From assembly GCA_965204865.1 (NCBI GenBank), contig OZ242027.1:2243986-2307985 (forward strand): a stretch of DNA of 64,000 bases, read 5' to 3'. A model generated the notes under the pieces. That model ran no database searches. It was not told the DNA's origin and was given only the letters and a program-made list of their open reading frames with translations. Shown piece after piece: positions 3,539 to 62,485 of the stretch (the stretch's first letter is position 1; the number at the start of each line of letters is the position of its first letter). A program made the position numbers and the translations under genes. This stretch comes from Dehalococcoidia bacterium. GTDB lineage: Bacteria; Chloroflexota; Dehalococcoidia; Lucifugimonadales; UBA3495.

Positions 3539-3618
3539 AGCATCTAAGGATTTGCAGCAGTGCCTCCGCCCAGAAATCTCGTCATTCCTGGTTAAGAACA
3601 CACAGGAGAAGCGTTTCA

Positions 3619-4557
3619 ATGTACTCGCGAATTCTGACGCCGCTGGACGGCTCCGAACATTCGGAACGAGTTCTGCCTTCTGCCCGCTCCCTGGCCGCCG
3701 GTCTTTCGCTGCCCGTAACGCTGCTCTATGCCATCGAGCCGGAACATCCCAGCATTTCCCAATCCCTGAACCCCAGGCTGCACCAGCATCAAACGGCGGC
3801 CCATCGCACTCAGCACGTCAGGGCATATTTGGAACCGGTTGCCGCCGGTCTGAGGAACGCGGGGCTGAACGTGGATATAACGATTCCCCAAGGCGACCCG
3901 GCCGCCGCCATAGTGGAAGAAGCGGCCAAAGACCCTGGCACGCTCATCACCATGTCCAGCCACGGGCGTTCCGGGCTGTCCCGATGGTGGATGGGCAGCG
4001 TGACCGACAAGGTGCTGCATCTTACCGAGAACCCGCTGCTGATAATTCACACCGCCGCGCAGCAACAGACTGAGCCGGAAGAGGCTTTCGAGCGCATCAC
4101 GGTCCCCGTTGACGGCTCGGAGCTGGCAGAGGAAATTTTGCCCCACGTGGCCTACCTGTCGGCAGCCATGGGACTTGCCGTTAACCTCGTTCAGGCTGTC
4201 CCTTCCCAGGAAGAATACTACCGCTACCTGTCCATCGGCCCGTCGGAAGTCTCCCGCGCGACGCCCTCCTATGAAGAATATGCCCAGATTGTGGACGGGG
4301 AAGCTGACTCCTATTTGGCCGAGTTGAAGGAGCGGCTGAGGCAACAGGGAGCGTCTCCAGTGGAAACTCAGTTGCTTCACGGCCCGCCAGCGGACTGCAT
4401 CGTAGATCTGGCAACCACTACCGCAAACAACCTGGTCGCCATGACCACCCACGGACGCTCCGGCGTGGGCCGCTTGGTGCTGGGCAGCGTAGCCGAGCGG
4501 GTGGTGCGCCAGTCCGGCGACCCGGTGCTCCTGATTCGTGGCGCACAGGGAGGCTAA
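3619..4557 (+). CDS. universal stress protein, tandem UspA domains (paralogue of 2567..3538)
   Basis: 312 aa; N-terminus MYSRILTPLDGSEHSERVLPSARSLAAGLSLPVTLLYAIE nearly identical to upstream gene; SD CAGGAG upstream. Confidence 0.85.
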   Translation: MYSRILTPLDGSEHSERVLPSARSLAAGLSLPVTLLYAIEPEHPSISQSLNPRLHQHQTAAHRTQHVRAYLEPVAAGLRNAGLNVDITIPQGDPAAAIVEEAAKDPGTLITMSSHGRSGLSRWWMGSVTDKVLHLTENPLLIIHTAAQQQTEPEEAFERITVPVDGSELAEEILPHVAYLSAAMGLAVNLVQAVPSQEEYYRYLSIGPSEVSRATPSYEEYAQIVDGEADSYLAELKERLRQQGASPVETQLLHGPPADCIVDLATTTANNLVAMTTHGRSGVGRLVLGSVAERVVRQSGDPVLLIRGAQGG

Positions 4558-4601
4558 ACCCCCTGAGCGGCGCTCCGGCCCCGGCTTAGAGGGTGTATGA
4601 A

Positions 4602-4643
4602 AATTCCCTCTCCCTTGAGGGAGAGGGTTAGGGTGAGGGGGCG
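4602..4643 (-). repeat. REP-A palindromic repeat copy
   Basis: aattCCCTCTCCCttgaGGGAGAGGGTTAGGGTGAGGGggcg; convergent spacer between USP and dsbA-like gene. Confidence 0.9.
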
Positions 4644-4721
4644 CAGTCTCAAGGTTCACGGCCTTCCATTAACCAGACCCCCTGAAACGGAACGCTACCC
4701 GGTACGAACCGGAATGCCCGG

Positions 4722-12432: not shown

Positions 12433-13770
12433 ATGACGGCACACTCGGCGGTTCGCACCATCACCAGCCCGGCCAAGCTCGGAGGCGAGTTGGCAGTGCC
12501 GGGCGACAAATCCATCTCGCACCGCTCCCTCATCCTCAACGCCATGGCCCACGGCACGGCCCGCGTTACCGGGCTCTCCAACGGCGAGGATGTTATGTCC
12601 ACCATGGCCTGTCTGCGTGGCATGGGGGTCGAAATCACCCAGGGGGACAACCCCGGCGAGTATACCGTGATTGGCCGGGGGCCGACGCTGGAAGAGCCGT
12701 CGGACATTCTCGACGCGGGCAACAGCGGCACTTCCATGCGCTTGCTCTCCGGGCTTATGGCGGCGCAGCCCTTCCTGTCGGTACTGACCGGCGACGCCTC
12801 GCTGCGCTCCCGCCCCATGCGCCGCATCGTTGAGCCGTTGCAACGTATGGGCGCCCAGGTCACGGGCCGACAGGAAGGCTCCCTGGCCCCGCTGGTCATC
12901 CGCGGCGGTTCCCTGCGAGGCATCGAATATGACCTGCCCGTTGCCAGCGCCCAGGTCAAGTCCTGCATCCTCCTCGCCGGACTGTCCGCCGACGGCGACA
13001 CCGTGATTCACCAGCCTGCCCTGTCCCGGGACCACACCGAGCGCATGGTCACCGCCATGGGCGCGACCGTTCAGGAAGACGGGCTAGACCTGTCGTTGCG
13101 CCCCGGCCTCCTGCGGGCGGTGGACATCTCCGTGCCTGGCGACATCAGCTCGGCGGCCTTCTGGATTGTGGCCGGCCTGTGCCATCCCGATTCGCGGGTC
13201 CTGGTGCGCGGCGTCGGCCTGAACCCCAGCCGCACCGGCATCATTGATGCGCTGCTCGCCATGGGCGCCGGGGACAGCCTGCTCCTGGTGAACCAACGCA
13301 CCGAGGGCGGGGAGCCGGTGGCCGACCTGCTGGTCACGCCGGGGCAACTGCGCGGCGCCGAAATCGGCGGCGATATGATTCCTCGCATTCTGGACGAAGT
13401 GCCAATTCTGGCGGTGGCCGCCTGCTTCGCCGAGGGGGAAACGGTCATCCGCGACGCCTCCGAGCTGCGGGTCAAGGAATCCGACCGCATCGCCACCACC
13501 GTCGGGGAGCTGTCGCGCTTGGGGGCCAGCATCGAGGCCCGCGAGGACGGCATGGTCATACGCGGGACCGGAAGGCTGACCGGCGCGGCCTGCCAGTCCC
13601 ACGGCGATCACCGCCTGGCCATGGCTATGGCCGTCTGCGGATTGCTAGCCGACGGCGAGACGGAGGTGCATGGCGCGGCCGACGCTTCTGTATCCTACCC
13701 CGGCTTCTGGGAACACCTGGACACGCTTGCAAACGCCTCCAGCTTCCCTCTCCCTCCGGGGGAGGGTTAG
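12433..13770 (+). CDS. aroA: 3-phosphoshikimate 1-carboxyvinyltransferase (EPSP synthase)
   Basis: LPGDKSISHRSLIL, DAGNSGTSMRLL, KESDRI motifs; last residues SFPLPPGEG* are translated REP-A. Confidence 0.92.
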   Translation: MTAHSAVRTITSPAKLGGELAVPGDKSISHRSLILNAMAHGTARVTGLSNGEDVMSTMACLRGMGVEITQGDNPGEYTVIGRGPTLEEPSDILDAGNSGTSMRLLSGLMAAQPFLSVLTGDASLRSRPMRRIVEPLQRMGAQVTGRQEGSLAPLVIRGGSLRGIEYDLPVASAQVKSCILLAGLSADGDTVIHQPALSRDHTERMVTAMGATVQEDGLDLSLRPGLLRAVDISVPGDISSAAFWIVAGLCHPDSRVLVRGVGLNPSRTGIIDALLAMGAGDSLLLVNQRTEGGEPVADLLVTPGQLRGAEIGGDMIPRILDEVPILAVAACFAEGETVIRDASELRVKESDRIATTVGELSRLGASIEAREDGMVIRGTGRLTGAACQSHGDHRLAMAMAVCGLLADGETEVHGAADASVSYPGFWEHLDTLANASSFPLPPGEG

Positions 13771-13784
13771 GTGGGGGCGTCCCC
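13744..13784 (-). repeat. REP-A copy
   Basis: ttCCCTCTCCCtccGGGGGAGGGTTAGGTGGGGGCGTCCCC; spans aroA stop (TAG 13768-70) and annotated gmk GTG. Confidence 0.85.
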
Positions 13785-14415
13785 TTTGACGTCCCGTATA
13801 CCCGAAGCCAGCCCACCGCCGCCCCTGCTGGTGGTGCTGTCCGGGCCTTCGGGCGCAGGCAAGGACGCGGTGCTGGCGGAACTGCGGAAGCTGGACCGCC
13901 CCTGGCACTTCGCCGTAACCGCCACCACCCGCCCCATGCGCCCCGGCGAACGCGACGGCGCAGACTACATCTTCCTCGACCCGGACACCTTCGCCCGGAT
14001 GCGGGAGCGCGACGAGTTCATAGAGTGCGCCGAGGTCTACGGACGTTGGTACGGCGTGCCGCGCAGCCAGGCCCGCGACGCCCTGCGCTGCGGCAAGGAC
14101 GTTATCCTAAAGATAGACGTTCAGGGCGCAGCCACCATCCGCCGCATGGCACCGGAAGCGTTGCTCATATTCCTGATACCGCCGTCGGTGGCCGACCTGC
14201 GGCAACGGTTGCAGGGCCGTATGACCGAGTCCGCAGAAGACTTGGAACGCCGTCTTGGGACAGCGGCGGAAGAACTGTCTCGGCTTCACGAATACGACTA
14301 TCGCGTGGTCAACGAAAACGGAAACGGTGGCCTGGCGCAGGCCGCAGCCGACATAGACGCCATCATCGCCGCCGAGAAGTGCCGCGTAACACCCCGACTG
14401 GTGCAGTTGTTATAA
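13771..14415 (+). CDS. gmk: guanylate kinase
   Basis: P-loop LSGPSGAGKD, TTRPMRPGERDGADYIF; start uncertain (GTG 13771 lies in REP-A; TTG 13786 alternative). Confidence 0.85.
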   Translation: MGASPLTSRIPEASPPPPLLVVLSGPSGAGKDAVLAELRKLDRPWHFAVTATTRPMRPGERDGADYIFLDPDTFARMRERDEFIECAEVYGRWYGVPRSQARDALRCGKDVILKIDVQGAATIRRMAPEALLIFLIPPSVADLRQRLQGRMTESAEDLERRLGTAAEELSRLHEYDYRVVNENGNGGLAQAAADIDAIIAAEKCRVTPRLVQLL

Positions 14416-20598: not shown

Positions 20599-20614
20599 CC
20601 ATATATCCAAAGGG

Positions 20615-20655
20615 GACGCCCTCACCCTAACCCTCTCCCTCTGGGAGAGGGGATT
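20615..20655 (+). repeat. REP-A copy (near consensus)
   Basis: GACGCCCTCACCCTAACCCTCTCCCtctGGGAGAGGGgatt; spacer pncB/etf. Confidence 0.9.
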
Positions 20656-20693
20656 TGTTCGCTACTCCAATTCGCCAATGGAAGTGACCGCCC

Positions 20694-22544
20694 ATGAAAA
20701 CCGCCGTCTGCATGAAATACGTCCCCGTCATCGCCCGGATGCGGTTCGACTACGAAGCCAGGACCATCATCCGCGAGGGCGTGCCTTCCGAGGTCAACCC
20801 CTTCGACGTTCTCGGCCTGGTGCGGGCGGTGGAGCTGAAAACCGCGTCCCCCGCTCCCGAAGATGACGAGGTCGTGGTGCTGACCATGGGGCCTCCCGGC
20901 GCCGCCGAGGGGCTGACCGAATGCCTGGCCCTGGGCGCAGACCGGGGCGTGCTGGTCACCGACCGCGCCTTGGCGGGCAGCGACACGCTGGCTACCTCCC
21001 GCGCCCTGGCGCTGGCCCTGGGCCGCGAGCAGCCCGACCTCATCATCTGCGGGCGCAACAGCACCGACGGCGAGACCGGACAGGTCGGCCCGGAGGTGGC
21101 CGAGCTCATGGGCCTGCCCCACGTCAGCCACGTTAGGCGGCTGGAGCTCAGCGACGACCGGCGCACCGCCATCGTCGAGCGCATCACCGACGAGGGCTTC
21201 CAGACCCTGGAATGCGACCTGCCCGCGGTCATCTGCGTAACCGAGGGAGTCGCGCCGGAGCTTTTCCCCAACCGCCAGCAGATGGAAGAGGCGGCCACCA
21301 AGCCGGTGGAGGAAGTCAGTTGCGCCCAACTGTCTGACGACCCGACGCAGTTCGGGTCGCAAGGCTCCCCTACCTGGGTCAACGAAATCCGCTTGGTGGA
21401 ACCCAATCGCCTCGGCGTCACTCTACAGGAAGTGACGCCCGAAGACGCCGCGCGGCAGATAGCCGACTCCGTGAAGGAACAACTGGCCGTCCTTCGACAA
21501 GCTCAGGATGACAATGGTGAGCCGGAAGCGCTGCCCCGTTATCCCGGCGTTACGAAACGCAGCATTTGGGTGGTCGCCGAAAATTCCCGAGATGGCCTGG
21601 CCCACGTCACCCTCGAGATGCTGGGCAAGGCCCGCGAACTGACCTCAGTAACCCGCAGCGAGGTGGCGGCGCTGGTCATAGCGTTGGGCGGCGAATCCCA
21701 CGCCCCGGCTTTGGCCGCTGCCGGAGCCGACCGCGTGATGGTGCTGGACAACTCCGAAATCGGGCCGGTGTCCAGCCGCGCCGTGGGCAATGCCCTAGCC
21801 GCCGCCGTGGAACGTGAAACACCCTACGCCATCCTATTCGCCTCCACTGCCGACGGGCGCGACCTAGCGTCACGGCTGGCGGCGCGGTTGAGCCTGGGAC
21901 TAACCGGCGACGCCATTGACCTGGAAATCGACGACGAAGGCAGCTTGGTGCAGTTGAAACCCGCCCTCGGCGGAAACGTGGTGGCTCCCATACTGTCCAA
22001 GACCCTGCCCAACCTGGTAACTCTGCGGCCCGGCCTGCTGACACCGGCGACAGCGGAACCCGGCGCTGAAGCCGTGGTGGAACACCTTTCCGCCGAACCC
22101 TTCGACGGGGCCGACGTGCGGCTCGTCGGCGAGGAGTTCCAGGAAGACACCGAGGGGCTGGACTTGGCCCGGGCGCGGATAGTTGTCGGGCTGGGTATGG
22201 GCGTGGAGGAAGAAAACGTGGCGGCGCTGGTGGAGACGGCCCGCTCCATCGGCGCGTCGGTCGCCACTACCCGCGACGTGGTGCACGCCGGCTGGCTGCC
22301 CCAGCAGTTGCAGGTGGGCATCAGCGGCCGCACCATCGCCCCCACGGTCTACATCGCCGTCGGCATACGCGGCGCGTTCAACCACACCGTCGGATTGCAG
22401 CGGGCGGGCATCATCGTCGCCATAAACCAGAACCGCCGCGCCACCATCTTCCGGTCATCGGACTTCGGCGTGGTAGGCACGTGGCAGGAGTTCCTGCCGC
22501 CACTGATTGAGCAACTGCGGCCAGTGCTGGCCGAGTTGGGTTAG
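20694..22544 (+). CDS. electron transfer flavoprotein, fused beta-alpha subunits
   Basis: 616 aa; N-terminal EtfB-like (MKTAVCMKYVP..LTMGP..ICGRNSTDGETGQVG), C-terminal EtfA FAD domain (VATTRDVVHAGW..QVGISGRTIAP.VYIAVGIRGAFNH). Confidence 0.85.
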   Translation: MKTAVCMKYVPVIARMRFDYEARTIIREGVPSEVNPFDVLGLVRAVELKTASPAPEDDEVVVLTMGPPGAAEGLTECLALGADRGVLVTDRALAGSDTLATSRALALALGREQPDLIICGRNSTDGETGQVGPEVAELMGLPHVSHVRRLELSDDRRTAIVERITDEGFQTLECDLPAVICVTEGVAPELFPNRQQMEEAATKPVEEVSCAQLSDDPTQFGSQGSPTWVNEIRLVEPNRLGVTLQEVTPEDAARQIADSVKEQLAVLRQAQDDNGEPEALPRYPGVTKRSIWVVAENSRDGLAHVTLEMLGKARELTSVTRSEVAALVIALGGESHAPALAAAGADRVMVLDNSEIGPVSSRAVGNALAAAVERETPYAILFASTADGRDLASRLAARLSLGLTGDAIDLEIDDEGSLVQLKPALGGNVVAPILSKTLPNLVTLRPGLLTPATAEPGAEAVVEHLSAEPFDGADVRLVGEEFQEDTEGLDLARARIVVGLGMGVEEENVAALVETARSIGASVATTRDVVHAGWLPQQLQVGISGRTIAPTVYIAVGIRGAFNHTVGLQRAGIIVAINQNRRATIFRSSDFGVVGTWQEFLPPLIEQLRPVLAELG

Positions 22545-22549
22545 GAGTA

Positions 22550-22587
22550 CGCCGCCACCCTAACTCTCCCCCGGAGGGAGAGGGAAG
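22550..22587 (+). repeat. REP-A copy (diverged)
   Basis: cgccgCCACCCTAACTCTCCCCCggaGGGAGAGGGaag; spacer etf/prpD-family. Confidence 0.75.
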
Positions 22588-26433: not shown

Positions 26434-26474
26434 GACGCTCTCACCCTAACCCTCTCCCTCTGGGGGAGGGAATT
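26434..26474 (+). repeat. REP-A copy
   Basis: GACGCTCTCACCCTAACCCTCTCCCtctGGGGGAGGGaatt; spacer between the two ACAD genes. Confidence 0.9.
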
Positions 26475-26486
26475 ATCAAGGATAAT

Positions 26487-27970: not shown

Positions 27971-27977
27971 ACCTTGG

Positions 27978-28017
27978 GACACCCCCACCCTAACCCTCCC
28001 CCTAAGGGGGAGGGAAT
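27978..28017 (+). repeat. REP-A copy
   Basis: gacaCCCCCACCCTAACCCTCCCCCtaaGGGGGAGGGaat. Confidence 0.85.
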
Positions 28018-28032
28018 GAAAGGAGCGTCACT

Positions 28033-28659: not shown

Positions 28660-28696
28660 TACGCCCTCACCCTGACCCTCTACCCAAGGGATAAGG
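28660..28696 (+). repeat. REP-A copy (degenerate hairpin)
   Basis: tacGCCCTCACCCTGACCCTCTACCCaaGGGATAAGG. Confidence 0.7.
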
Positions 28697-28721
28697 AACC
28701 GAACGACGGGAGGTATGCGTT

Positions 28722-44028: not shown

Positions 44029-44076
44029 AATTCCCTCTCCCTCTGGGAGAGGGAGAGGGTTAGGGTGAGGGCGTAC
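44029..44076 (-). repeat. REP-A copy (extra GGGAGA unit)
   Basis: aattCCCTCTCCCtctGGGAGAGGGAGAGGGTTAGGGTGAGGGcgtac. Confidence 0.9.
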
Positions 44077-44112
44077 CCCCACCGCAAACATAAAACAACG
44101 GGAGGAACCCGA

Positions 44113-44928
44113 ATGGCAACATCGGAGGAACTCGCCGCGCTGGTGAGGTCGGAATCGGCGAGACTGCTGGAATACTTCAAGGGACTGTCGCCGTCGGACT
44201 GGGAGACTCAGAGCGCGTGCGATGCATGGACCAACGCCGACGTGGTGGCCCACATGGTCATGGCCGTGGATATGTTCTCCATGAACATCGAGCGGGGGGC
44301 GGGCGGAGACTCGTCACCGCCGGAGGGCATGGGGCCGCCACAGGAGACGGACCTGGCGGCTAGGATGGCGGCCAATGCGACGCGGGCGGTGGCGATGCGG
44401 GAAAACCTCGGCGATTCGCTGGTGGACTCCTTCGCGGAAAACTGTGAGCGGCTGGGGGCGCTTCTGGCCCAGATGGGGCCGGAGGATTGGGATAAGCCCT
44501 GCTATCATCCCGCCGCGATGCTGACGGTCAGCAGGTATATGAACCTGCGGCTGGCAGAGATGTCAGTCCATGAGTGGGACATACGCTCACGGCTGGAGCC
44601 GTCGGCCAAGCTGCCCGACGCCGTGGTGCCGGCGGTCATCGAGTTGCTGCCGGGGTTCGTGGTGGGGCGGCTGTTCCAGCCGGGGGCGGGCATTGCCCAG
44701 CCGTCGCGGTTCCGGTTCAGCCTGACGGAAGGCGGGGCCTACGACATCGTGGCCGGGGACGGCGAACTGCGGATGGAGCCAAGCACCAGTGGCGCTGCCG
44801 ACGTTACGTTCACCTGCGACGGGTCCACCTTTGCTCTGCTGGCCTACGGGCGGTTCACGGTGGAGGATGCGGTGAGTACGGGAGACATCACGGTCGAGGG
44901 GAACCGGGAACTGGCCGCGCAGTTTTAG
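44113..44928 (+). CDS. DinB/mycothiol-maleylpyruvate-isomerase-N-terminal-like protein (TIGR03083-type)
   Basis: GGGAGG SD; ..SPSDWETQSACDAWTNADVVAHMV.. pattern. Confidence 0.7.
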   Translation: MATSEELAALVRSESARLLEYFKGLSPSDWETQSACDAWTNADVVAHMVMAVDMFSMNIERGAGGDSSPPEGMGPPQETDLAARMAANATRAVAMRENLGDSLVDSFAENCERLGALLAQMGPEDWDKPCYHPAAMLTVSRYMNLRLAEMSVHEWDIRSRLEPSAKLPDAVVPAVIELLPGFVVGRLFQPGAGIAQPSRFRFSLTEGGAYDIVAGDGELRMEPSTSGAADVTFTCDGSTFALLAYGRFTVEDAVSTGDITVEGNRELAAQF

Positions 44929-44931
44929 GGT

Positions 44932-44971
44932 GACGCCCTCACCCTAACCCTCTCCCTCTGGGAGAGGGGAC
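44932..44971 (+). repeat. REP-A copy (consensus)
   Basis: GACGCCCTCACCCTAACCCTCTCCCtctGGGAGAGGGgac. Confidence 0.9.
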
Positions 44972-44992
44972 TACTAAAGAGGAGATGATTCG

Positions 44993-50829: not shown

Positions 50830-52296
50830 TCAGCCGCCGAGGCACTTGCCTAGCCAGGCCCGGCCGTCCCGGGCGAGGAAGTCATCGGCAGCGAATGGAC
50901 CTTCGGTGCCAGGGTCATAGACCTCCGGTAGGCGGGATGATGGGTCGGACAGGCCCTCGATGAGGGGGTCCATGATGCTCCAGGACTGCTCGATTTCATC
51001 GCTGCGGATGAAGAGGGAGGCGTCACCGTTGAGGGCGTCCAGCAGCAGGCGCTCGTAAGCATCGGGTATTTCCTGGCCGCCGAAGGAGTCCTCGTAGTGG
51101 AATTCCAAGTTCACGGGGCGGAGGTCCAGGGCCGAGTCCGGGGTCTTGGCCTGGAATTCCAGATGCACGCCCTCGTTGGGCTGGACGCAGATTGACAGGG
51201 TGTTGGAAGTTATGTCGCCGCTGCTGCCTTGCGGGAAGATGAGATGGGGCGGGCGGCGGAATTGAATCAGCACCTCGGTCTTCTTGCTGCTCAGGGCCTT
51301 GCCGGAGCGCAGGTAGAAGGGCACTCCCTGCCAGCGCCAGTTGTCCACGTCCAGCCGGAGGGCAGCGTAGGTGGCGGTGCGGGAATCGGGCGGAACGCCG
51401 GGTTCGTCGAGATAGCCGTCGTACTGTCCCCGCACGGCATAGATTGGAGCATCCCGGGCTGATATGCGCCGCACCGCTTTCAGCACCTTGACCTTCTCGT
51501 TGCGGAGGGTGTCGGCCTCGAAGGTGGAGGGCGGCTCCATGGCGACCACGGCCAGCAGTTGCAGGATGTGGCTCTGGAACATATCCCGCAGCACGCCGGC
51601 CCGGTCGTAGTAGGGGGCGCGCTCGGCGATAGACACGGACTCCGCCACTGTAATCTGTATGTTGTCTATGTAGTTGCGAGACCAGATTGGCTCGAAAATG
51701 GCGTTGGCGAAACGGAAAACCAGGAGATTCTGGACCGTCTCCTTGCCGAGATAGTGGTCTATCCGATAGACCTGATGTTCGGCGAATACCGAGTGGACGA
51801 CGTGGTTGAGTTCTTTGGCGGTTTCCAGGTTAACGCCGAAAGGCTTTTCCACCACGACCCTGCGCCAGCAGCCGTTTTCGACCTGGTATCCCGCCCGGCC
51901 CAGGGCCTGGACAGCCGGGGCAAACAGAAACGGGGCCAATGCCAGGTAGTAGAGGCGGTTGGCGGGCTTTTCGGGCGACTCGATGTTGCTCAGAGTGCGT
52001 TCCAGTTCGCGAAAGCCGTCGGGAGCCGAAACGTCGCCGTAGCAACTGTGGACCCGGTTGGCAAAGTCGTTCCATAGTTCAGGCGCGGGAGGGAAGTCGG
52101 CTTCCTGACCGAAACCCTGGTAGAAGGAAGCGCGGAATTCGTCGGCGGTCATATCACTGCGAGAGACGCCGACTATCTGGACTTCCGGGCCCAGGCGGCC
52201 TTTCGCGTAGAGGTCGGCTAAGGCCGGGGCCAGCTTATTGCTGGCGAGATCGCCCGATGCGCCGAAAATGACGAGAGTGGTGGTCTGGTCTGTCAT
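50830..52296 (-). CDS. zwf: glucose-6-phosphate dehydrogenase
   Basis: IFGASGDLA, RIDHYLGKE motifs; ATG 52296 abuts REP-A. Confidence 0.92.
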   Translation of the reverse strand: MTDQTTTLVIFGASGDLASNKLAPALADLYAKGRLGPEVQIVGVSRSDMTADEFRASFYQGFGQEADFPPAPELWNDFANRVHSCYGDVSAPDGFRELERTLSNIESPEKPANRLYYLALAPFLFAPAVQALGRAGYQVENGCWRRVVVEKPFGVNLETAKELNHVVHSVFAEHQVYRIDHYLGKETVQNLLVFRFANAIFEPIWSRNYIDNIQITVAESVSIAERAPYYDRAGVLRDMFQSHILQLLAVVAMEPPSTFEADTLRNEKVKVLKAVRRISARDAPIYAVRGQYDGYLDEPGVPPDSRTATYAALRLDVDNWRWQGVPFYLRSGKALSSKKTEVLIQFRRPPHLIFPQGSSGDITSNTLSICVQPNEGVHLEFQAKTPDSALDLRPVNLEFHYEDSFGGQEIPDAYERLLLDALNGDASLFIRSDEIEQSWSIMDPLIEGLSDPSSRLPEVYDPGTEGPFAADDFLARDGRAWLGKCLGG

Positions 52297-52363
52297 GCCC
52301 TCACCCTAACCCTCTCCCTTTGGGAGAGGGAAAATGGGTAATCCTTTCCCAGAGGGAGAAGGA
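52297..52363 (+). repeat. REP-A copy plus adjacent degenerate hairpin
   Basis: GCCCTCACCCTAACCCTCTCCCtttGGGAGAGGGaaaa ... TCCTTTCCCagaGGGAGAAGGA; spacer gnd/zwf. Confidence 0.85.
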
Positions 52364-52379
52364 ACTATCAGTGGCCGGG

Positions 52380-53291
52380 CTAATCGCCGCTGCGCCTTAC
52401 GGCGTGGCCGCCGAACTGCTGGCGTAGGGCGGCAAGCATTTTGGCTCCCAGCGGGCCGTCCTGCCGGGAGCGGAAACGCTGCTGCAAGGCCGCCGTGATA
52501 GCCGGTATCGGCACGGCCAGGTCAACGGATTCCTCCACCGTCCAGCGGCCTTCGCCGGAATCTTCCACGTAGGCTTGCAGGCTATCCAGCCGCGGGTCTT
52601 CCTTCAGCGCGGCGGCGGCCAGGTCCAGCAGCCAGGAGCGGACGACTGCGCCGTAACGCCAGGTCTCGGCAATGGCGGCGAGGTCCAGGTCGAACTCATC
52701 CTTGGCCGACAGCAGCTCGAAACCCTCGGCGTAGGCTTCCATCAAGGCGTACTCGACGCCGTTATGCACCATCTTTACGAAATGGCCCGCTCCGCTGGGG
52801 CCGACGTGGGAGTAGCCGGTAGTTTCGCTGGGGGCCAGGCTGCGGAAGGCGGGTTCGAGGCGCTTCACCGCCCCCTCGGGCCCGCCGACCATGAGGCAGA
52901 AGCCGGTGGTCAGCCCCCAGATGCCTCCACTGGTTCCCACATCAATGAAGTCAATGCCATGCGTCGCCAGCGCTTCTGCGCGACGCATGGAGTCCTTGTA
53001 ATTGGCGTTGCCGCCGTCGAGGATGGCGTCGCCGGGGGAGAGCAAAGGAGACAAGCTGTCCATAGTATCTTGGGTTGGCTGCCCTTGAGGCAGCATCAGC
53101 CATACGGCCCGCGGTGGGGTAAGCATAGAGACTAAGGAGGGCAGGGAACCGGCGCCTTCGACGCCGAACTGGGCGCTGTCGGCCACGGCTTCGGCGTTGA
53201 GGTCATAGGAAACGACCCGGTGTCCGCCGAGAATCAGCCGCCGCGCCATGTTGGCGCCCATACGCCCGAGGCCTACCAGTCCGATTTCCAA
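52380..53291 (-). CDS. gnd: 6-phosphogluconate dehydrogenase, short (about 300 aa) decarboxylating type
   Basis: TTG start 53291 with AAGGAGG 7 nt upstream; GLVGLGRMGANMARRL Rossmann motif. Confidence 0.88.
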   Translation of the reverse strand: MEIGLVGLGRMGANMARRLILGGHRVVSYDLNAEAVADSAQFGVEGAGSLPSLVSMLTPPRAVWLMLPQGQPTQDTMDSLSPLLSPGDAILDGGNANYKDSMRRAEALATHGIDFIDVGTSGGIWGLTTGFCLMVGGPEGAVKRLEPAFRSLAPSETTGYSHVGPSGAGHFVKMVHNGVEYALMEAYAEGFELLSAKDEFDLDLAAIAETWRYGAVVRSWLLDLAAAALKEDPRLDSLQAYVEDSGEGRWTVEESVDLAVPIPAITAALQQRFRSRQDGPLGAKMLAALRQQFGGHAVRRSGD

Positions 53292-53325
53292 AGAAACGCC
53301 TCCTTACTTGCCTCTGCCTGCGGGT

Positions 53326-53368
53326 CGCCTCGCCCTAACCATATCCCTATCCCTCAAGGGATAGGGGG
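53326..53368 (+). repeat. REP-A-related copy (variant hairpin)
   Basis: cgcctcGCCCTAACCatATCCCTATCCCTcaaGGGATAGGGgg; spacer pgi/gnd. Confidence 0.7.
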
Positions 53369-53381
53369 CCCTTTGCGTACG

Positions 53382-55028
53382 CTAAAATTCGTCGAGGAGG
53401 CGGCGCAGCCCGCTGACGGCGTCGTCGCCGAGGTTGACGGCCACCAGGCGGCGGCCAAGGTTGGTGAGCGCCTGGTAGTCGCCGATGGCCTGAGCAGCGG
53501 CCAGAACGTCGAAGCCGTACTGCTGCCCTGGAATCGGCAGTTCTTGGTAGCGGTCTACAGTCAGTTGCAAGTACAGACCGGAGCCGGGGCCGCCCTTGTG
53601 AAGCTGCCCGGTAGAGTGCAGGTAGCGAGGCCCGTAGCCGACTGTGGTGGCTATGCGGCGCCGCTCCACTATGCGCGACCGCAGTTCGTCCAACAGGGCG
53701 TCTGCCTCCGGGTCTGGCGGGAAGTAGGACATTATGGCTAAGTAATCGCCCGGGTGGGCTTGGTCGAGTAAGGCCGCCAAGGAACCCGATGCAGCGCGCT
53801 CCGGCAGATGTCCCTGTCTCAGGAAAGCGTCCAACAGGCTGTCGGTGTTGTCCTTCGCGCCCTGCACGTCAGGCTGGTCGAAGGGATGAATGTCCAGCAT
53901 TGAACCGGCTATCGCAGTCGCGTATTCCCAGCGGAAGAACTCAGCGCCCAGAGAGTAGTGGTCGGCCAATTCCAGCCGCGCCACCGGATGCCCGGCGGTT
54001 TCCAACCGCTCGACCGCTTCATCCGACGCCCTCACCCTGGCCCTCTCCCAGTGGGAGAGGGAACTGTCCTCGGCTCGCAGGTATACGAACAGCCGGTCAT
54101 CGGCGTAGCAGTCCGGGGGTAGCACGGGCTCCCCGGCCACCGGAACGATGCCCCGACCTTCTTTGCCCAGGCTTTCGGCAATCATCTGCTCTACCCAAAG
54201 TCCAAAGCTGTCTATGGGCGGTGGGGTAATCAGCGTTACCTTGTCCCGTCCGGCCAGGGTCATCGCGCCGAGCAATGCGCCCAGGCGGAGGCCGGGGTTG
54301 GCGTCGTCATCGGAGCCCAAGCACTGGTCGCGCATTTCAGCAGCGGAGTCTAGCAATCGGACTACCTCTATACCGGTCAGGGCCGCAGGCAGCATCCCGA
54401 ACCACGACAACACCGAGTAGCGCCCGCCAATATCCGCCGGGTTCAGGAACACCCGGCGGAAGCCTGCTTCTTGGCCTAGACGCTCCAGGGGGGTACCAGA
54501 GTCGGTGATGGCGACGAAGTTGGCGCCTGCCCGGCCATCGGGCCGCGCCAATTCCGCCAGTTCGCGAAAATACCGGTAAAAGGATAGCGTTTCAATGGTG
54601 CCGCCGGACTTCGAGGAAACGATGAAGAGGGTATGCGCCGGGTCAATGGCGTCGGAAACGGCAGTCACCTGCCCGGGGATGGTGGAGTCCAGCAGGGTGA
54701 GCCGGGGGTTTTCCTTCGGGATGAGCTGGCTGGCGAGAAAGGAGCGGCGCAGGACCTCCGGCCCAAGACTGCTGCCGCCCATCCCCAGCAACACAACGTC
54801 GCGGAAACCCTCAGCGCAGATTTCGTTTACGAAGGCCGATAACTCCGGCAAATGGGGGCGCAGGAAATCCCCGGCGTCCAGCCAGCCCAGCCGGTCAGAG
54901 ATTTCCCGCGGGTCGGAACGCCAGACGGTATAGTCATGCTCCCATATACGCTGGTGGACGCGCTGCCTTAGCAGGTCATCTAGGGCCTGCTCCGTTATCT
55001 CGGACATCCTATGCCCGGATTCGCTCAC
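53382..55028 (-). CDS. pgi: glucose-6-phosphate isomerase
   Basis: SIS motif LLGMGGSSLGPEV; GTG 55028 two nt after tkt stop (ATG 55007 alternative); contains in-frame REP-A copy. Confidence 0.85.
   Translation of the reverse strand: MSESGHRMSEITEQALDDLLRQRVHQRIWEHDYTVWRSDPREISDRLGWLDAGDFLRPHLPELSAFVNEICAEGFRDVVLLGMGGSSLGPEVLRRSFLASQLIPKENPRLTLLDSTIPGQVTAVSDAIDPAHTLFIVSSKSGGTIETLSFYRYFRELAELARPDGRAGANFVAITDSGTPLERLGQEAGFRRVFLNPADIGGRYSVLSWFGMLPAALTGIEVVRLLDSAAEMRDQCLGSDDDANPGLRLGALLGAMTLAGRDKVTLITPPPIDSFGLWVEQMIAESLGKEGRGIVPVAGEPVLPPDCYADDRLFVYLRAEDSSLSHWERARVRASDEAVERLETAGHPVARLELADHYSLGAEFFRWEYATAIAGSMLDIHPFDQPDVQGAKDNTDSLLDAFLRQGHLPERAASGSLAALLDQAHPGDYLAIMSYFPPDPEADALLDELRSRIVERRRIATTVGYGPRYLHSTGQLHKGGPGSGLYLQLTVDRYQELPIPGQQYGFDVLAAAQAIGDYQALTNLGRRLVAVNLGDDAVSGLRRLLDEF
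54025..54066 (+). repeat. REP-A copy inside pgi coding sequence
   Basis: GACGCCCTCACCCTGGCCCTCTCCCagtGGGAGAGGGaact; read in pgi frame as ..DSSLSHWERARVRAS.. Confidence 0.85.
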
Positions 55029-55030
55029 AA

Positions 55031-57079
55031 CTAGCCACCGTTGTTGACCAGCTTGCGGGCTTCTTCAGCCACGCGAGCGGCGGTGAAGCCGAACTGCTCC
55101 AGCACTACACCGCCGGGAGCCGACGCACCGAAGGTGGACATACCGATGGATGCGCCGTCCAGGCCGACGTAGCGGGCCCAGCCGTTGGTTGCGCCAGCCT
55201 CCACCGACAGCCGCGCCCGCTGGCCTGGCGGGAGTACGGCGTCGCGGTATTCCTGTGGTTGCTCGTCGAACAGTTCCCAGGACGGCATCGATACCAAGCG
55301 AGCGGTAATTCCCTCTTCCTTCAGAGCTTGGGCGGCTTCAAGAGCGATGTGGACCTCGGAGCCGGTGGCAATGATTATGACCTGCGGTCCTTCGCCACCG
55401 GGGATGGGTGTGTCTTCCCATAAAATGTAGCCGCCTTTGGCAGCGCCCTCGGCAGGAGGCAGGCAATTTGCGCTTGCCGAACCGGTGGATGGGTCCAAGA
55501 CTGGAAGGTTCTGGCGGCTGAGGGCAAGGGCGGTGGGGCCGCCGCGCCGTTCCAGGGCAGCCTGCCAGGCGGCGGCGGTTTCCGTGGCGTCGGCAGGGCG
55601 AATGACCGCCAAATTTGGCATGGCGCGAAGAGACATCAGATGCTCGACGGGCTGGTGGGTCGGACCATCTTCACCCAGGCCGATGGAATCATGGGTAAAA
55701 ACGTATATCACCTGCTGCTCCATCAAGGCACTAAGGCGCAGGGCAGGACGCATGTAATCGGAGAATATCAGGAAGGTGGAAGCGTAGGGTATTGCGCCGC
55801 CGTGGACGGCGATGCCGTTGCACACAGAGCCCATGGCGTGTTCGCGTACGCCGAAGTGGAGGTTGCGTCCGTCGAAATTGCCGGGGCCAATATGCCCTTC
55901 GCTGTTCAGGATGGTCAGGGTAGAAGGCGCAAGATCGGCGGAACCGCCGATTAGGTTGGGAACGGCGCCAGCGATAGTGTTCATCACCCGGCCCGAAGCC
56001 TCCCTAGTGGAGACGGCCTTGCCGTCGTCGAAGAGGCCCGACATTCCACCGTACCATCCGGGGGATAGCTGTCCGGTGAGGGCGGCGGATAGCTGAGCGG
56101 CCTCGTCGGGGAAGCTGTCCCGATAGCGGGCGAAGGCTACCTGCCAATCCTCCTGCTGCTGACGCCCTCTATCCTTGGCCCGGCTCAGATGCTCGCTGAC
56201 CTCACCCGGGATGGTGAAGCTGTCGGAATAGGGCCATTCCAACTGCTGCCTGGTAAGCACTATTTCATCATCGCCCAGCGGCGCGCCGTGGACTCCGCCG
56301 GTGCCGGCCTTGTTGGGGCTGCCGTACCCGATAACCGTCTGGCAGACGATGAGGGTGGGCTTAGCGGATTCGGCCTTGGCTTCGGCGATGGCAGCGGTCA
56401 CTGCGTCGAGGTCGCGGCCGTCCATGGCACCCAGCACCTGCCAGCCGTAGGACTCGAAACGGCGGGGGACATCCTCCAAGAAGGCGATGTCCGTGTCGCC
56501 TTCAATGGAAATCTGGTTGTCGTCGTAAATCACGATGAGTTTGCCCAACCCCAGAGTACCCGCGAGGGATGCCGCTTCGGAGGCAACGCCCTCCTGAAGG
56601 TCGCCGTCGGAGGCCAGGGCGTAGGTGTAGTGGTCAATGATTTCGTGGCTGGGGCGGTTGAAGCGAGTTGCCAGCCATCGCTCGGCGAGGGCCATGCCGA
56701 CGGCGTTGGCCAACCCCTGCCCCAGCGGGCCGGTGGTCACTTCGACGCCGGGCGTGAGGCCGTATTCGGGATGCCCAGGCGTGCGGCTGCCCCACTGCCG
56801 GAACTTCTGCAATTCTTCCATGGGTAGGTCGTAGCCAGTCAGGTGGAGCATGGAGTAGAGCAATGCGGACGCGTGTCCGGCGGAAAGGACGAAGCGGTCG
56901 CGGTCAGGCCAATGCGGGTCGGCGGGGTTGTGCTTCAGGAAGCGGTCCCAAAGCACGTAGGCCATGGGGGCGGCGCCCATCGGCGCGCCGGGATGCCCAG
57001 ACCGCGCCTTCTGGACCGTGTCAACGGACAGTAACCGGATAGTGTTTATGCAAAGCTGGTCAAGAGCCGAAACGGTCAA
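55031..57079 (-). CDS. tkt: transketolase
   Basis: [26 protein letters not shown] motifs; TTG start 57079 with AGAGGA SD. Confidence 0.92.
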
Positions 57080-61035: not shown

Positions 61036-61803
61036 ATGTCAGTCGCCAACGATACTCTTGAAAGGCTGTCCACGAAGGCGAAAATCGGGCTGGTGGTGGT
61101 GAGCGCCTCGACGGTATCAGAGCTTCGCTACCCGAAAGTCGTGCCGGATGTCGGGTTCTTCGCCAGCAGGATGATGCTGGCCGGCGACGGGCTGGAGGCT
61201 TTGCTGGAGATGGAGCACAACTCGTCGCGGGCGGTGCAGGAGCTGGCCTCGGCGGGGATGGACTCCATCGCCTACTGCTGCACGGTCAGCGGAGCGCAGC
61301 GCGGCCTGGCGAAGGACCGGGAGTTCTGCGCCAACATGGAGCGGCAATGGGGGGCGCCCACAACCTCGACGATGCTGGCGGCAGCCGAGGCGTTGCAGCA
61401 CCTGGGCATCGGCCGGGTTGTGCTGACCAGCCCCTACCCGCACAGCTACCACGAGGCAGAGAGCCGATACTTGGCTGAGGCCGGGATCGAGACCGTAGCG
61501 GCTTCGGGAATGGGGTTTGTAACCGCCGCAGAGTTCGCCGCAGTTTCGCCGGAGGAGATATACCGCTTTGCGCTGGAAGCGTGGCAACAGAACGGCGGAG
61601 AGGCCGATGGACTGTTCATAAGCTGCATGAACTTCGACGCCATGGCCGCGGCCCAGGCATTGGAGAACGCCATCGGCAAGCCGGTGGTGACCTCGCACTC
61701 GGCCACGCTGTGGCGGGCGCTGGCGCTGGCCGGGGTTGCCGAGCCGGTACACGGTTACGGGCGGCTGCTGGCGGAACGCCGGGAAGGGACGCCCTCACCC
61801 TAA
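61036..61803 (+). CDS. Asp/Glu-racemase-superfamily protein (maleate isomerase / arylmalonate decarboxylase-like)
   Basis: Two Cys contexts AYCCTVSG and FISCMNF; stop TAA 61801-03 lies in REP-A. Confidence 0.75.
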   Translation: MSVANDTLERLSTKAKIGLVVVSASTVSELRYPKVVPDVGFFASRMMLAGDGLEALLEMEHNSSRAVQELASAGMDSIAYCCTVSGAQRGLAKDREFCANMERQWGAPTTSTMLAAAEALQHLGIGRVVLTSPYPHSYHEAESRYLAEAGIETVAASGMGFVTAAEFAAVSPEEIYRFALEAWQQNGGEADGLFISCMNFDAMAAAQALENAIGKPVVTSHSATLWRALALAGVAEPVHGYGRLLAERREGTPSP

Positions 61804-61828
61804 CCCTCTCCCAAGGGGAGAGGGAATT
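61788..61828 (+). repeat. REP-A copy (consensus)
   Basis: GACGCCCTCACCCTAACCCTCTCCCaagGGGAGAGGGaatt immediately followed by ATG 61829. Confidence 0.9.
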
Positions 61829-62485
61829 ATGACAATCAAGGAGGAAACAACAAGAATGACTACTGCCGACCGCCTGAACGCCATGCCGCTAGGTGAGGCG
61901 ATGTTCACCCAGCGGGCAATCCGCCGGTTCAAGAAGGACCAGATACCGGACGATGTGCTGGAAGACATCATGCAGGCGACCATCCGGGCGCCCAACGGCG
62001 GCAACAACCAGCAGTGGCGCTTCATCCTGGTGAAGGACGCTGAAATGCGGAGCAAGCTGGCCGAGCTATATCACGAAGCCTGGTGGGCCAAGCGGGCCGA
62101 TGCGGGCATCATGGGGCCGGAGGACATTCCGCCCGGAAAGAGCTCAATGCGCTCGGCGATGCGGATGGCCAACGAAATAGGCGACGCGCCGGTGATGGTG
62201 CTGGTATGCGCGACGGCCAAGGGGGCGCAGGCCATGGGGTCGGTCATCCCCTCGGCGCAGAATATGCTGCTGGCGGCGCGGGCCTTCGGCGTGGGCGGCA
62301 CCATCGCCACGCTCCACCCGGTGGTGGAGGAGCGGGTGCATAAGATGTTCGGCATCCCGGACGACGCCCAGGTGGTGTACTGTATGCCGCTGGGCTATCC
62401 ACGGGGCGAGTTCGGCTCGGTGCGGCGGCTTCCGCTAACGGAGGTCTGCGGCGTGGACGGGTGGGGCAACAACTACCCCGGCTAG
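61829..62485 (+). CDS. nitroreductase-family protein
   Basis: ..FTQRAIRRFKKDQIP.., ..APNGGNNQQWRFILV..; ATG 61829 abuts REP-A (ATG 61856 alternative). Confidence 0.8.
   Translation: MTIKEETTRMTTADRLNAMPLGEAMFTQRAIRRFKKDQIPDDVLEDIMQATIRAPNGGNNQQWRFILVKDAEMRSKLAELYHEAWWAKRADAGIMGPEDIPPGKSSMRSAMRMANEIGDAPVMVLVCATAKGAQAMGSVIPSAQNMLLAARAFGVGGTIATLHPVVEERVHKMFGIPDDAQVVYCMPLGYPRGEFGSVRRLPLTEVCGVDGWGNNYPG

Follow-up and report, generated by a model that had tools for sequence, protein, structure and literature searches.

Palindromic repeats within genes

Rickettsia palindromic elements (RPEs) are inserted in frame in Rickettsia genes that code for proteins (Ogata et al. 2000, 2002, as cited in PMC10969869 and PMC3184786). 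Nearly half of the RPE copies of R. conorii are intragenic; the elements are described as about 100-150 bp long (PMC3184786) and belong to alphaproteobacterial families. Repetitive extragenic palindromes (REPs) tagged by GTAG or CGTC are 20-40 bp long, are usually intergenic, often donate stop codons and occasionally lie wholly inside open reading frames, ORFs (Di Nocera et al. 2013, PMC3733652). For uvrA and uvrB, the same gene is reported to have been hit twice, the intragenic copies are concentrated in genes of replication and repair, and GTAG, not CGTC, repeats are listed for Chloroflexi (PMC3733652). In the CGTC-tagged REPs, CGTC abuts a stem of 8-9 bp starting with A/T pairs, and there is a loop of 4-5 nt and a short tail (PMC3733652). 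Here we describe a copy of a short palindromic repeat, REP-A, inside the glucose-6-phosphate isomerase (PGI) gene pgi in a 64-kb stretch of a metagenome-assembled genome of the Dehalococcoidia, below called the window. It is highly probable that the repeat entered pgi in a common ancestor, was tolerated, and has then been carried as a passenger.

The REP-A copy in pgi

REP-A is a palindromic repeat of about 40 nt. Approximately 22 copies in both orientations were found in the window by an nhmmer profile made from 11 intergenic copies, with a consensus of 39 nt. The consensus has the layout ACGCCCTCACCCT-TAA-CCCTCTCCC-loop-GGGAGAGGG-AA. The stem-loop is G/C-rich, with arms of 9 bp and a loop of 3 nt, and the loop sequence varies among the family members. 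We counted 12 occurrences of the palindrome core CCCTCTCCCnnnGGGAGAGGG in the window, where 0.01 are expected, and 14 of the 5' module ACGCCCTCACCCTAACCCTCTCCC, with none expected. The copy in pgi is the sole one well inside a gene; all others are intergenic or overlap the gene ends by a few bases. The features of this locus are as follows.

53382..55028, minus strand: pgi, glucose-6-phosphate isomerase, intact, 548 codons (Pfam PF00342, SIS fold; E = 1.5e-14)
54025..54065, plus strand (orientation of the family consensus, antisense to pgi transcription): REP-A copy, exact string GACGCCCTCACCCTGGCCCTCTCCCAGTGGGAGAGGGAACT (nhmmer 26.8 bits, E = 2e-7)
54041..54061, unstranded: REP-A palindrome, perfect 9-10 bp G/C stem CCCTCTCCCA / TGGGAGAGGG
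54024..54065, minus strand: fourteen REP-derived pgi codons SSLSHWERARVRAS, residues 315-328 of the database protein P0001, which are residues 322-335 of the 548-codon ORF (from codon alignments)

The copy is identical to the consensus at 35 of 39 positions; two of the four mismatches change TAA in the spacer to TGG, and the other two are in the loop. The full string has a single match in the window and none in 100 shuffles. Translation across the copy reads ..RAEDSSLSHWERARVRASDEAV.. and the frame is uninterrupted. Of the three consensus frames on the pgi strand, frame 2 (SLSQRERVRVRA) alone is open and is the one used in pgi; TAG and TGA stand in the remaining frames. The preliminary description, made from the window sequence, had claimed a full REP-A copy in frame within pgi, and in this it was correct; of the coordinates given there, 54025-54066, the start stands and the end moves to 54065. 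No target duplication is evident at the insertion.

Could a G+C-rich coding stretch resemble REP-A by chance or by composition? The genome has 62% G+C, and short palindromes of purine and pyrimidine tracts are common in it. However, shuffles yielded no matches for the 41-mer, a 24-mer or the palindrome, the profile match has the low E-value given above, the stretch is absent from 81 of the 115 orthologues considered below, and one relative has the exact consensus. A chance resemblance is thus practically inconceivable.

The database protein, with homologues in the thousands, starts from the ATG at 55007. Its AlphaFold model (mean predicted confidence, pLDDT, 89.6) matches the PGI crystal structures 3ifs, 1zzg and 2pgi, and all top Foldseek hits of the model are PGI, with E about 1e-18. 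The signature motifs DIGGRYS and FDQPxVxxxK are invariant in the 115 orthologues. The ratio of nonsynonymous to synonymous divergence (dN/dS) over pgi is 0.10-0.18, and therefore the gene is under purifying selection and the enzyme is functional. This bears also on an assembly artefact or a pseudogene, which would be conceivable as mis-assembly of repeats can occur and the sequence comes from a metagenome-assembled genome. The intact ORF, the dN/dS value and the recurrence of the same insert in six or more independent assemblies of separate projects speak against it, so that next to no weight can be given to this explanation.

Comparison of orthologues

We compared 115 PGI proteins with 64-100% identity; DNA was fetched for 52 loci, and carriers and non-carriers of the insert were codon-aligned (below, proteins have P and loci L numbers). 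The relatives are uncultured Dehalococcoidia and Chloroflexota, known solely as metagenome-assembled genomes.

In the 81 orthologues mentioned above the insert site is occupied by a short block of 12-13 residues, typically LRPxxGxNADEA. Seven orthologues, the window included, contain the REP-A peptide SL[SPA][HQ]xE[RK]x[RE]V[RK]AS, with a net increase of 10 residues, and P0010 has a different REP-A-derived peptide at the same site. At the DNA level, the 42 nt of the carriers are represented in non-carriers (e.g. L003, L004, L052) by an unrelated sequence of 12 nt. Four of the fourteen REP-derived codons replace older loop codons, and the net gain is 10 residues (+30 nt). The early estimate of an insertion of about 14 residues thus fits the number of REP-derived codons and overstates the net gain. 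In all seven carriers the position, orientation, frame and length of the insert are identical. All orthologues with SLSHWERARVRAS-like residues also have REP-A-like DNA at the site; thus the observation named in the preliminary description as contradicting an insertion, the same residues in orthologues lacking REP-A, was made in no sequence among the 115. Presence or absence of the insert is polymorphic among related lineages, a point which that description had proposed to check. By alignment, the REP-A stretch of pgi is an insertion relative to the orthologues.

The carriers form a series of increasing distance from the consensus. L047, whose protein is 83% identical, retains the canonical GGGTTAGGGTGAGGGCGTC, its allele reading ...TCCCTCTCCCACTGGGAGAGGGTTAGGGTGAGGGCGTC. 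The consensus GTT has drifted to GCT and then to GCC: the reading is GCTAGGG in L045 and L051 and GCCAGGG in the window. The inserts of L049 and L050 are more eroded, with shared derived changes.

The insert and the gene have diverged in step. Identity between the window and L045 is 0.95 in the insert and 0.90 in the gene; the respective values are 0.90 and 0.82 for L047, and 0.79 and 0.78 for L049. Thus the insertion is old and has been carried along with the gene. Repeated, independent and recent hits from a uniform master copy would not be expected to give such a pattern.

Relatives without the pgi insert, e.g. L052, L008-L012 and L016, have REP-A in their flanks, and hence the family is older and wider than the insertion. 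The same fact disposes of the reverse scenario, in which the family arose from a pgi segment and then spread to intergenic sites. Nothing more than the shared sequence speaks for it; the segment is absent from most orthologues, and with TAA->TGG the pgi copy shows a derived state compared with the consensus. We consider an origin of the family in pgi to be of negligible probability.

The nearest relatives of the window have alleles longer by six residues at this site, GADVSVIRSY and GDDEPGLHWC, below called '+6'. These were considered as eroded REP-A, and this was unsupported: the REP-A profile does not match them, their DNA has about 25-35% identity by eye with the REP-A allele, which is the random level, and the peptide resemblance (RIRSCDQA versus RVRASDQA) is weak and would require different arginine codon families.

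Predicted structure of the insert

The AlphaFold model of the window protein was compared with that of P0014, a 79%-identical orthologue without the insert.

Window protein: strand 305-312 RLFVYLRA; loop EDSSLS, 6 residues; helix 319-337 HWERARVRASDEAVERLET, 19 residues
P0014: strand RLFVCLRP; loop of 6 residues; helix DAAVERLEA, 9 residues

The sole difference between the two models is the length of the helix at the beta-alpha junction, 9 residues in the orthologue and 19 residues in the window protein, the next loop and strand being unchanged. The pLDDT values are 87-95 in the insert region. In the model the loop holds only SSLS of the insert, and HWERARVRAS is predicted to extend the following helix. 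Thus the REP codons are predicted mostly to add about three turns of charged helix. The models thus refine the suggestion that the insert forms a surface loop: they place SSLS in the loop, and the remainder in a helix extension.

Recurrent insertions in PGI

The site described above is not the only one in PGI with repeat-derived residues. At the same site, L048 (P0010) has an independent REP-A in another frame (PLYLEGEGRGEG), in which the TAG that the consensus has in that frame is altered. A second site, loop 2, follows helix 138-154. It contains a REP-A variant, REP-A' (SLSLRGRVRVGAS), in L045, L047, L049 and L050, and a REP-A in the opposite orientation (RPHPNPPPRGEG) in L024; the same peptide motif is found in P0074, P0086 and P0102. 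Another palindrome, REP-B (CCGTTCATCC-TGAGCTTGTCGAA-GGATGAACGG, peptide HPELVEG), is found at loop 2 in L048, L051, L002 and L037. A third site, loop 3, follows helix 382-398 and contains REP-B in about 20 orthologues, often adjoining tandem PTVHxPE expansions of up to +54 residues. Altogether about 30 of the 115 orthologues have at least one REP-derived segment, as counted by regular expressions with a few false matches included. The window protein has the copy at the first site only. Judging by these alignments, three PGI junctions accept between 6 and 54 extra residues, which come from two repeat families in different frames.

Proline-, threonine- and histidine-rich tandem repeats (PTVHxPExP) stand beside REP-B in L049, L050, L002, P0011, P0017, P0026 and P0042. 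The equivalent of loop 3 in the window (about 53800-53830) contains no such repeats.

REP-B was also observed in another gene of the window. Its 20-nt core CATCCTGAGCTTGTCGAAGG occurs exactly at 21491-21510 (minus strand) within the ORF 20694-22544 (plus strand), which encodes a fusion of the beta and alpha subunits of electron transfer flavoprotein (ETF), and is translated in the linker as AVLRQAQDDNG. Over 100 orthologues share the conserved fusion, and the REP-B-like linker is present only in some of them (the window, P0124, P0126, P0134, P0207). As the unrelated linker of other orthologues has the same length, REP-B here replaced sequence rather than added to it.

A wider census of intragenic REP-A in the 52 loci, using a home-made gene caller based on the G+C content of third codon positions, was set aside, as several of the internal matches were in spurious ORFs; for example, the call at 19040-19948 of L052 contradicts the genes called there. 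The intragenic counts given here use the window figure and the PGI cases only.

Origin and fate of the insert

We propose that REP-A was taken up into the coding sequence of pgi in an ancestor of several species-level Dehalococcoidia lineages, at the junction of a beta-strand and the following helix. The insert would have survived since the net gain of 30 nt is a multiple of three, the only open frame was used, and the arginine- and glutamate-rich peptide is predicted to extend an existing helix, by which it is probably tolerated. Since then it would have been a passenger of the gene, with the peptide under relaxed constraint and the hairpin under none, and the insert is presumably neutral. 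The molecular route of entry could have been transposition, template switching or patch conversion.

Several observations weigh against this scenario. The REP-A allele is patchily distributed: in a simple neighbour-joining tree, computed with variable columns excluded and no bootstrap support, REP-A alleles and those of the '+6' class are interleaved in two sister clades. In the fourteen REP codons dS is somewhat lower than in the whole pgi, as computed from about 10 synonymous sites only, and this could mean a younger insert, constraint at the DNA level, or noise. Finally, no REP-associated transposase (RAYT) or IS200-like gene was found adjoining the REP-A copies in the window, where no systematic search was made and the only REP-flanked ORF that was checked belongs to the MDMPI/DinB family.

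Because the REP-A and '+6' alleles are interleaved, a single vertical insertion is insufficient, and either recombination among lineages or repeated replacement has to be assumed as well. Indeed, there is a considerable possibility, if somewhat short of an even one, that the allele was acquired by homologous recombination with a related population, or that REP-A entered this loop more than once. Besides the tree, this is suggested by the independent copy in the other frame in L048, by the ETF linker, which is equally patchy for REP-B, and by loop 2, where the window lacks the REP-A' borne by its closest relatives L045 and P0003 and has an empty, ancestral-looking site. On the other hand, the insert has diverged in step with the gene, the flanks of the carriers are not unusually similar except in the pair of the window and L051, and the agreement of the seven carriers in position, orientation, frame and length also argues against it.

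Another explanation is that the insert is useful, either because a hairpin in mRNA tunes translation or decay in the tkt-pgi-gnd-zwf operon, or because the longer helix alters the stability or interactions of PGI. A hairpin is indeed predicted in the pgi mRNA strand, with a perfect stem in both the window and L047, lineages whose gene dS reaches about 1 have retained the insert, its synonymous divergence is lower than that of the gene, and the added residues are modelled as a helix with high confidence. However, the 51-nt context folds no better than shuffled sequences (z = -0.17) and thus provides no support for a selected RNA structure. In the window sequence the stem is not followed by a U-tract. 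The hairpin is weakened in L045 and L050, eroded in L051 and lost in L049, the peptide changes fast, the fourteen REP codons having a dN about twice that of the whole pgi, and most orthologues have no insert. The occurrence of different repeats in different frames and orientations at the same loops speaks for sites that are permissive and against a specific function. There is no sign of selection on either the RNA structure or the peptide sequence of the insert, and a useful role is improbable.

A further mechanism may also be considered. Short REPs of this Dehalococcoidia clade could enter genes by patch replacement instead of simple insertion, for instance by template switching or gene conversion primed at the hairpin-prone, fast-evolving DNA of loops, and the patches could then be exchanged between lineages by recombination. 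This is hinted at by the REP segments at three loops of PGI, from two families and in several frames and orientations; by the 42 nt of REP-A, which replace 12-30 nt of the older pgi loop sequence; and by the REP-B of the ETF linker, which replaces a segment of exactly equal length. At present we regard this as a rather unlikely, speculative model. If it is true, REPs would repeatedly give rise to variation in the loops and linkers of core enzymes.

REP-A in the window

The typical context of the family is intergenic, as in the following copies.

20613..20656, plus strand: intergenic REP-A with the best score in the window, consensus reference (nhmmer 47.7 bits; hairpin fold z = -1.9)
52294..52335, plus strand, same orientation as the pgi copy: canonical intergenic REP-A between gnd and zwf (nhmmer 42.9 bits)
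52339-52366: degenerate second REP-A copy beside the gnd-zwf copy
61786..61830, plus strand: intergenic REP-A whose TAA (61801-61803) is the stop codon of the ORF 61036-61803
20613-20656, 22547-22586, 26434-26475, 27976-28018, 28660-28697 and 44931-44972: REP-A copies just upstream of gene starts

Many copies, including those in the last line, precede the start codon of the following gene on the same strand by 10-40 nt, in the very short spacers of apparent operons. Thus they are likely to be transcribed just ahead of ribosome-binding sites. The ORF whose stop codon is donated by REP-A at 61801-61803 belongs to the Amdase family. A REP-A variant (13744-13782) supplies the end of aroA (12433-13770), roughly its last 8 codons and the TAG at 13768-13770, and the next ORF call (13771-14415) begins within the same copy. 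A strong copy (4601-4641, minus strand, 37.8 bits) is within the first 20 codons of the ORF 3616-4659 (minus strand, 347 codons, no Pfam match); most likely, the GTG start of this ORF is mis-called and REP-A lies upstream of the true start. An inverted pair of copies, 44030-44077 (minus strand) and 44931-44972 (plus strand), brackets the ORF 44065-44928. This ORF was considered as a candidate REP-associated transposase and rejected, as its Pfam match is to the MDMPI/DinB-family proteins mentioned above. Rfam has no match anywhere in the window.

The pgi operon

The neighbours of pgi in its operon, identified by Pfam, are as follows.

55031..57079, minus strand: transketolase, the gene upstream of pgi
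52380..53291, minus strand: 6-phosphogluconate dehydrogenase, short form (gnd), downstream of pgi
50830..52296, minus strand: glucose-6-phosphate dehydrogenase (zwf), the last gene of the operon

The order transketolase-pgi-gnd-zwf is kept in the relatives. An IS605 OrfB/TnpB-type gene is situated between pgi and gnd in two of them (L047, 11728-13074; L052, 11672-13056), and an uncharacterised ORF of 128 amino acids is found there in L045. The pgi-gnd spacer of the window (53292-53381) is only 90 nt long and contains a degenerate palindrome CCCTATCCCTcaAGGGATAGGG at 53345-53366.

Comparison with known systems

In-frame insertion of palindromic repeats, known best in Rickettsia and in some bacteria rich in REPs, is extended here to uncultured Dehalococcoidia; for Dehalococcoidia, SAR202 and the Chloroflexi of sponges, our literature searches gave no relevant report of REPs or palindromic repeats. 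Of added interest is that one core enzyme has been hit by two repeat families at three or more permissive junctions. The series of PGI orthologues is a natural map of permissive sites in a protein that is otherwise under strong purifying selection, and may be of use in engineering of PGI loops and in assessing the contribution of selfish DNA to variation in protein length. For annotation, it is useful to know that the REP peptides SLSxxERxRVRAS, RPHPNPPPRGEG and HPELVEG will recur in these genomes.

Like the REPs of the REPIN/RAYT systems of Pseudomonas and enterobacteria (PMC8049555, PMC3733652), REP-A is an intergenic palindrome of high copy number whose mobilisation is presumed to take place in trans. 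In those systems the REPs form inverted doublets and also flank a cognate RAYT gene, whereas the copies in the window are mostly singletons.

The similarity to the GTAG- and CGTC-tagged REPs is closer, as REP-A is short, mostly intergenic, donates stop codons and is occasionally found within an ORF as an insertion relative to the homologues. Like the CGTC-tagged repeats it has CGTC at one end, the sequence ending in ...GGGCGTC. However, this CGTC is 12 nt away from the stem (module GGGTGAGGG-TTA), the stem is all G/C and the loop has 3 nt, so that REP-A falls outside the definition of that class. The host gene also differs from the intragenic cases of Di Nocera et al., as it belongs to sugar metabolism.

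With the RPEs, as these are characterised in the sources cited above, the pgi insert shares a dispersed palindrome in a housekeeping gene, the preserved frame, absence from orthologues, an extra encoded peptide, and repeated hits per gene. The RPE peptides are considered to be compatible with the protein fold; for PGI, the two models predict a lengthened helix as the only change. The likeness to RPEs seen in the preliminary description is a functional one only and does not extend to length: compared by length and published description, REP-A has about 40 nt against the 100-150 nt of the RPE families (RPE-1 to RPE-10), belongs to Chloroflexota, and has one intragenic copy of about 22 in the window. 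The REP-A copy in pgi involves no new mechanism and is a clear new example, in a new lineage, of the documented in-frame insertion of REPs and RPEs.

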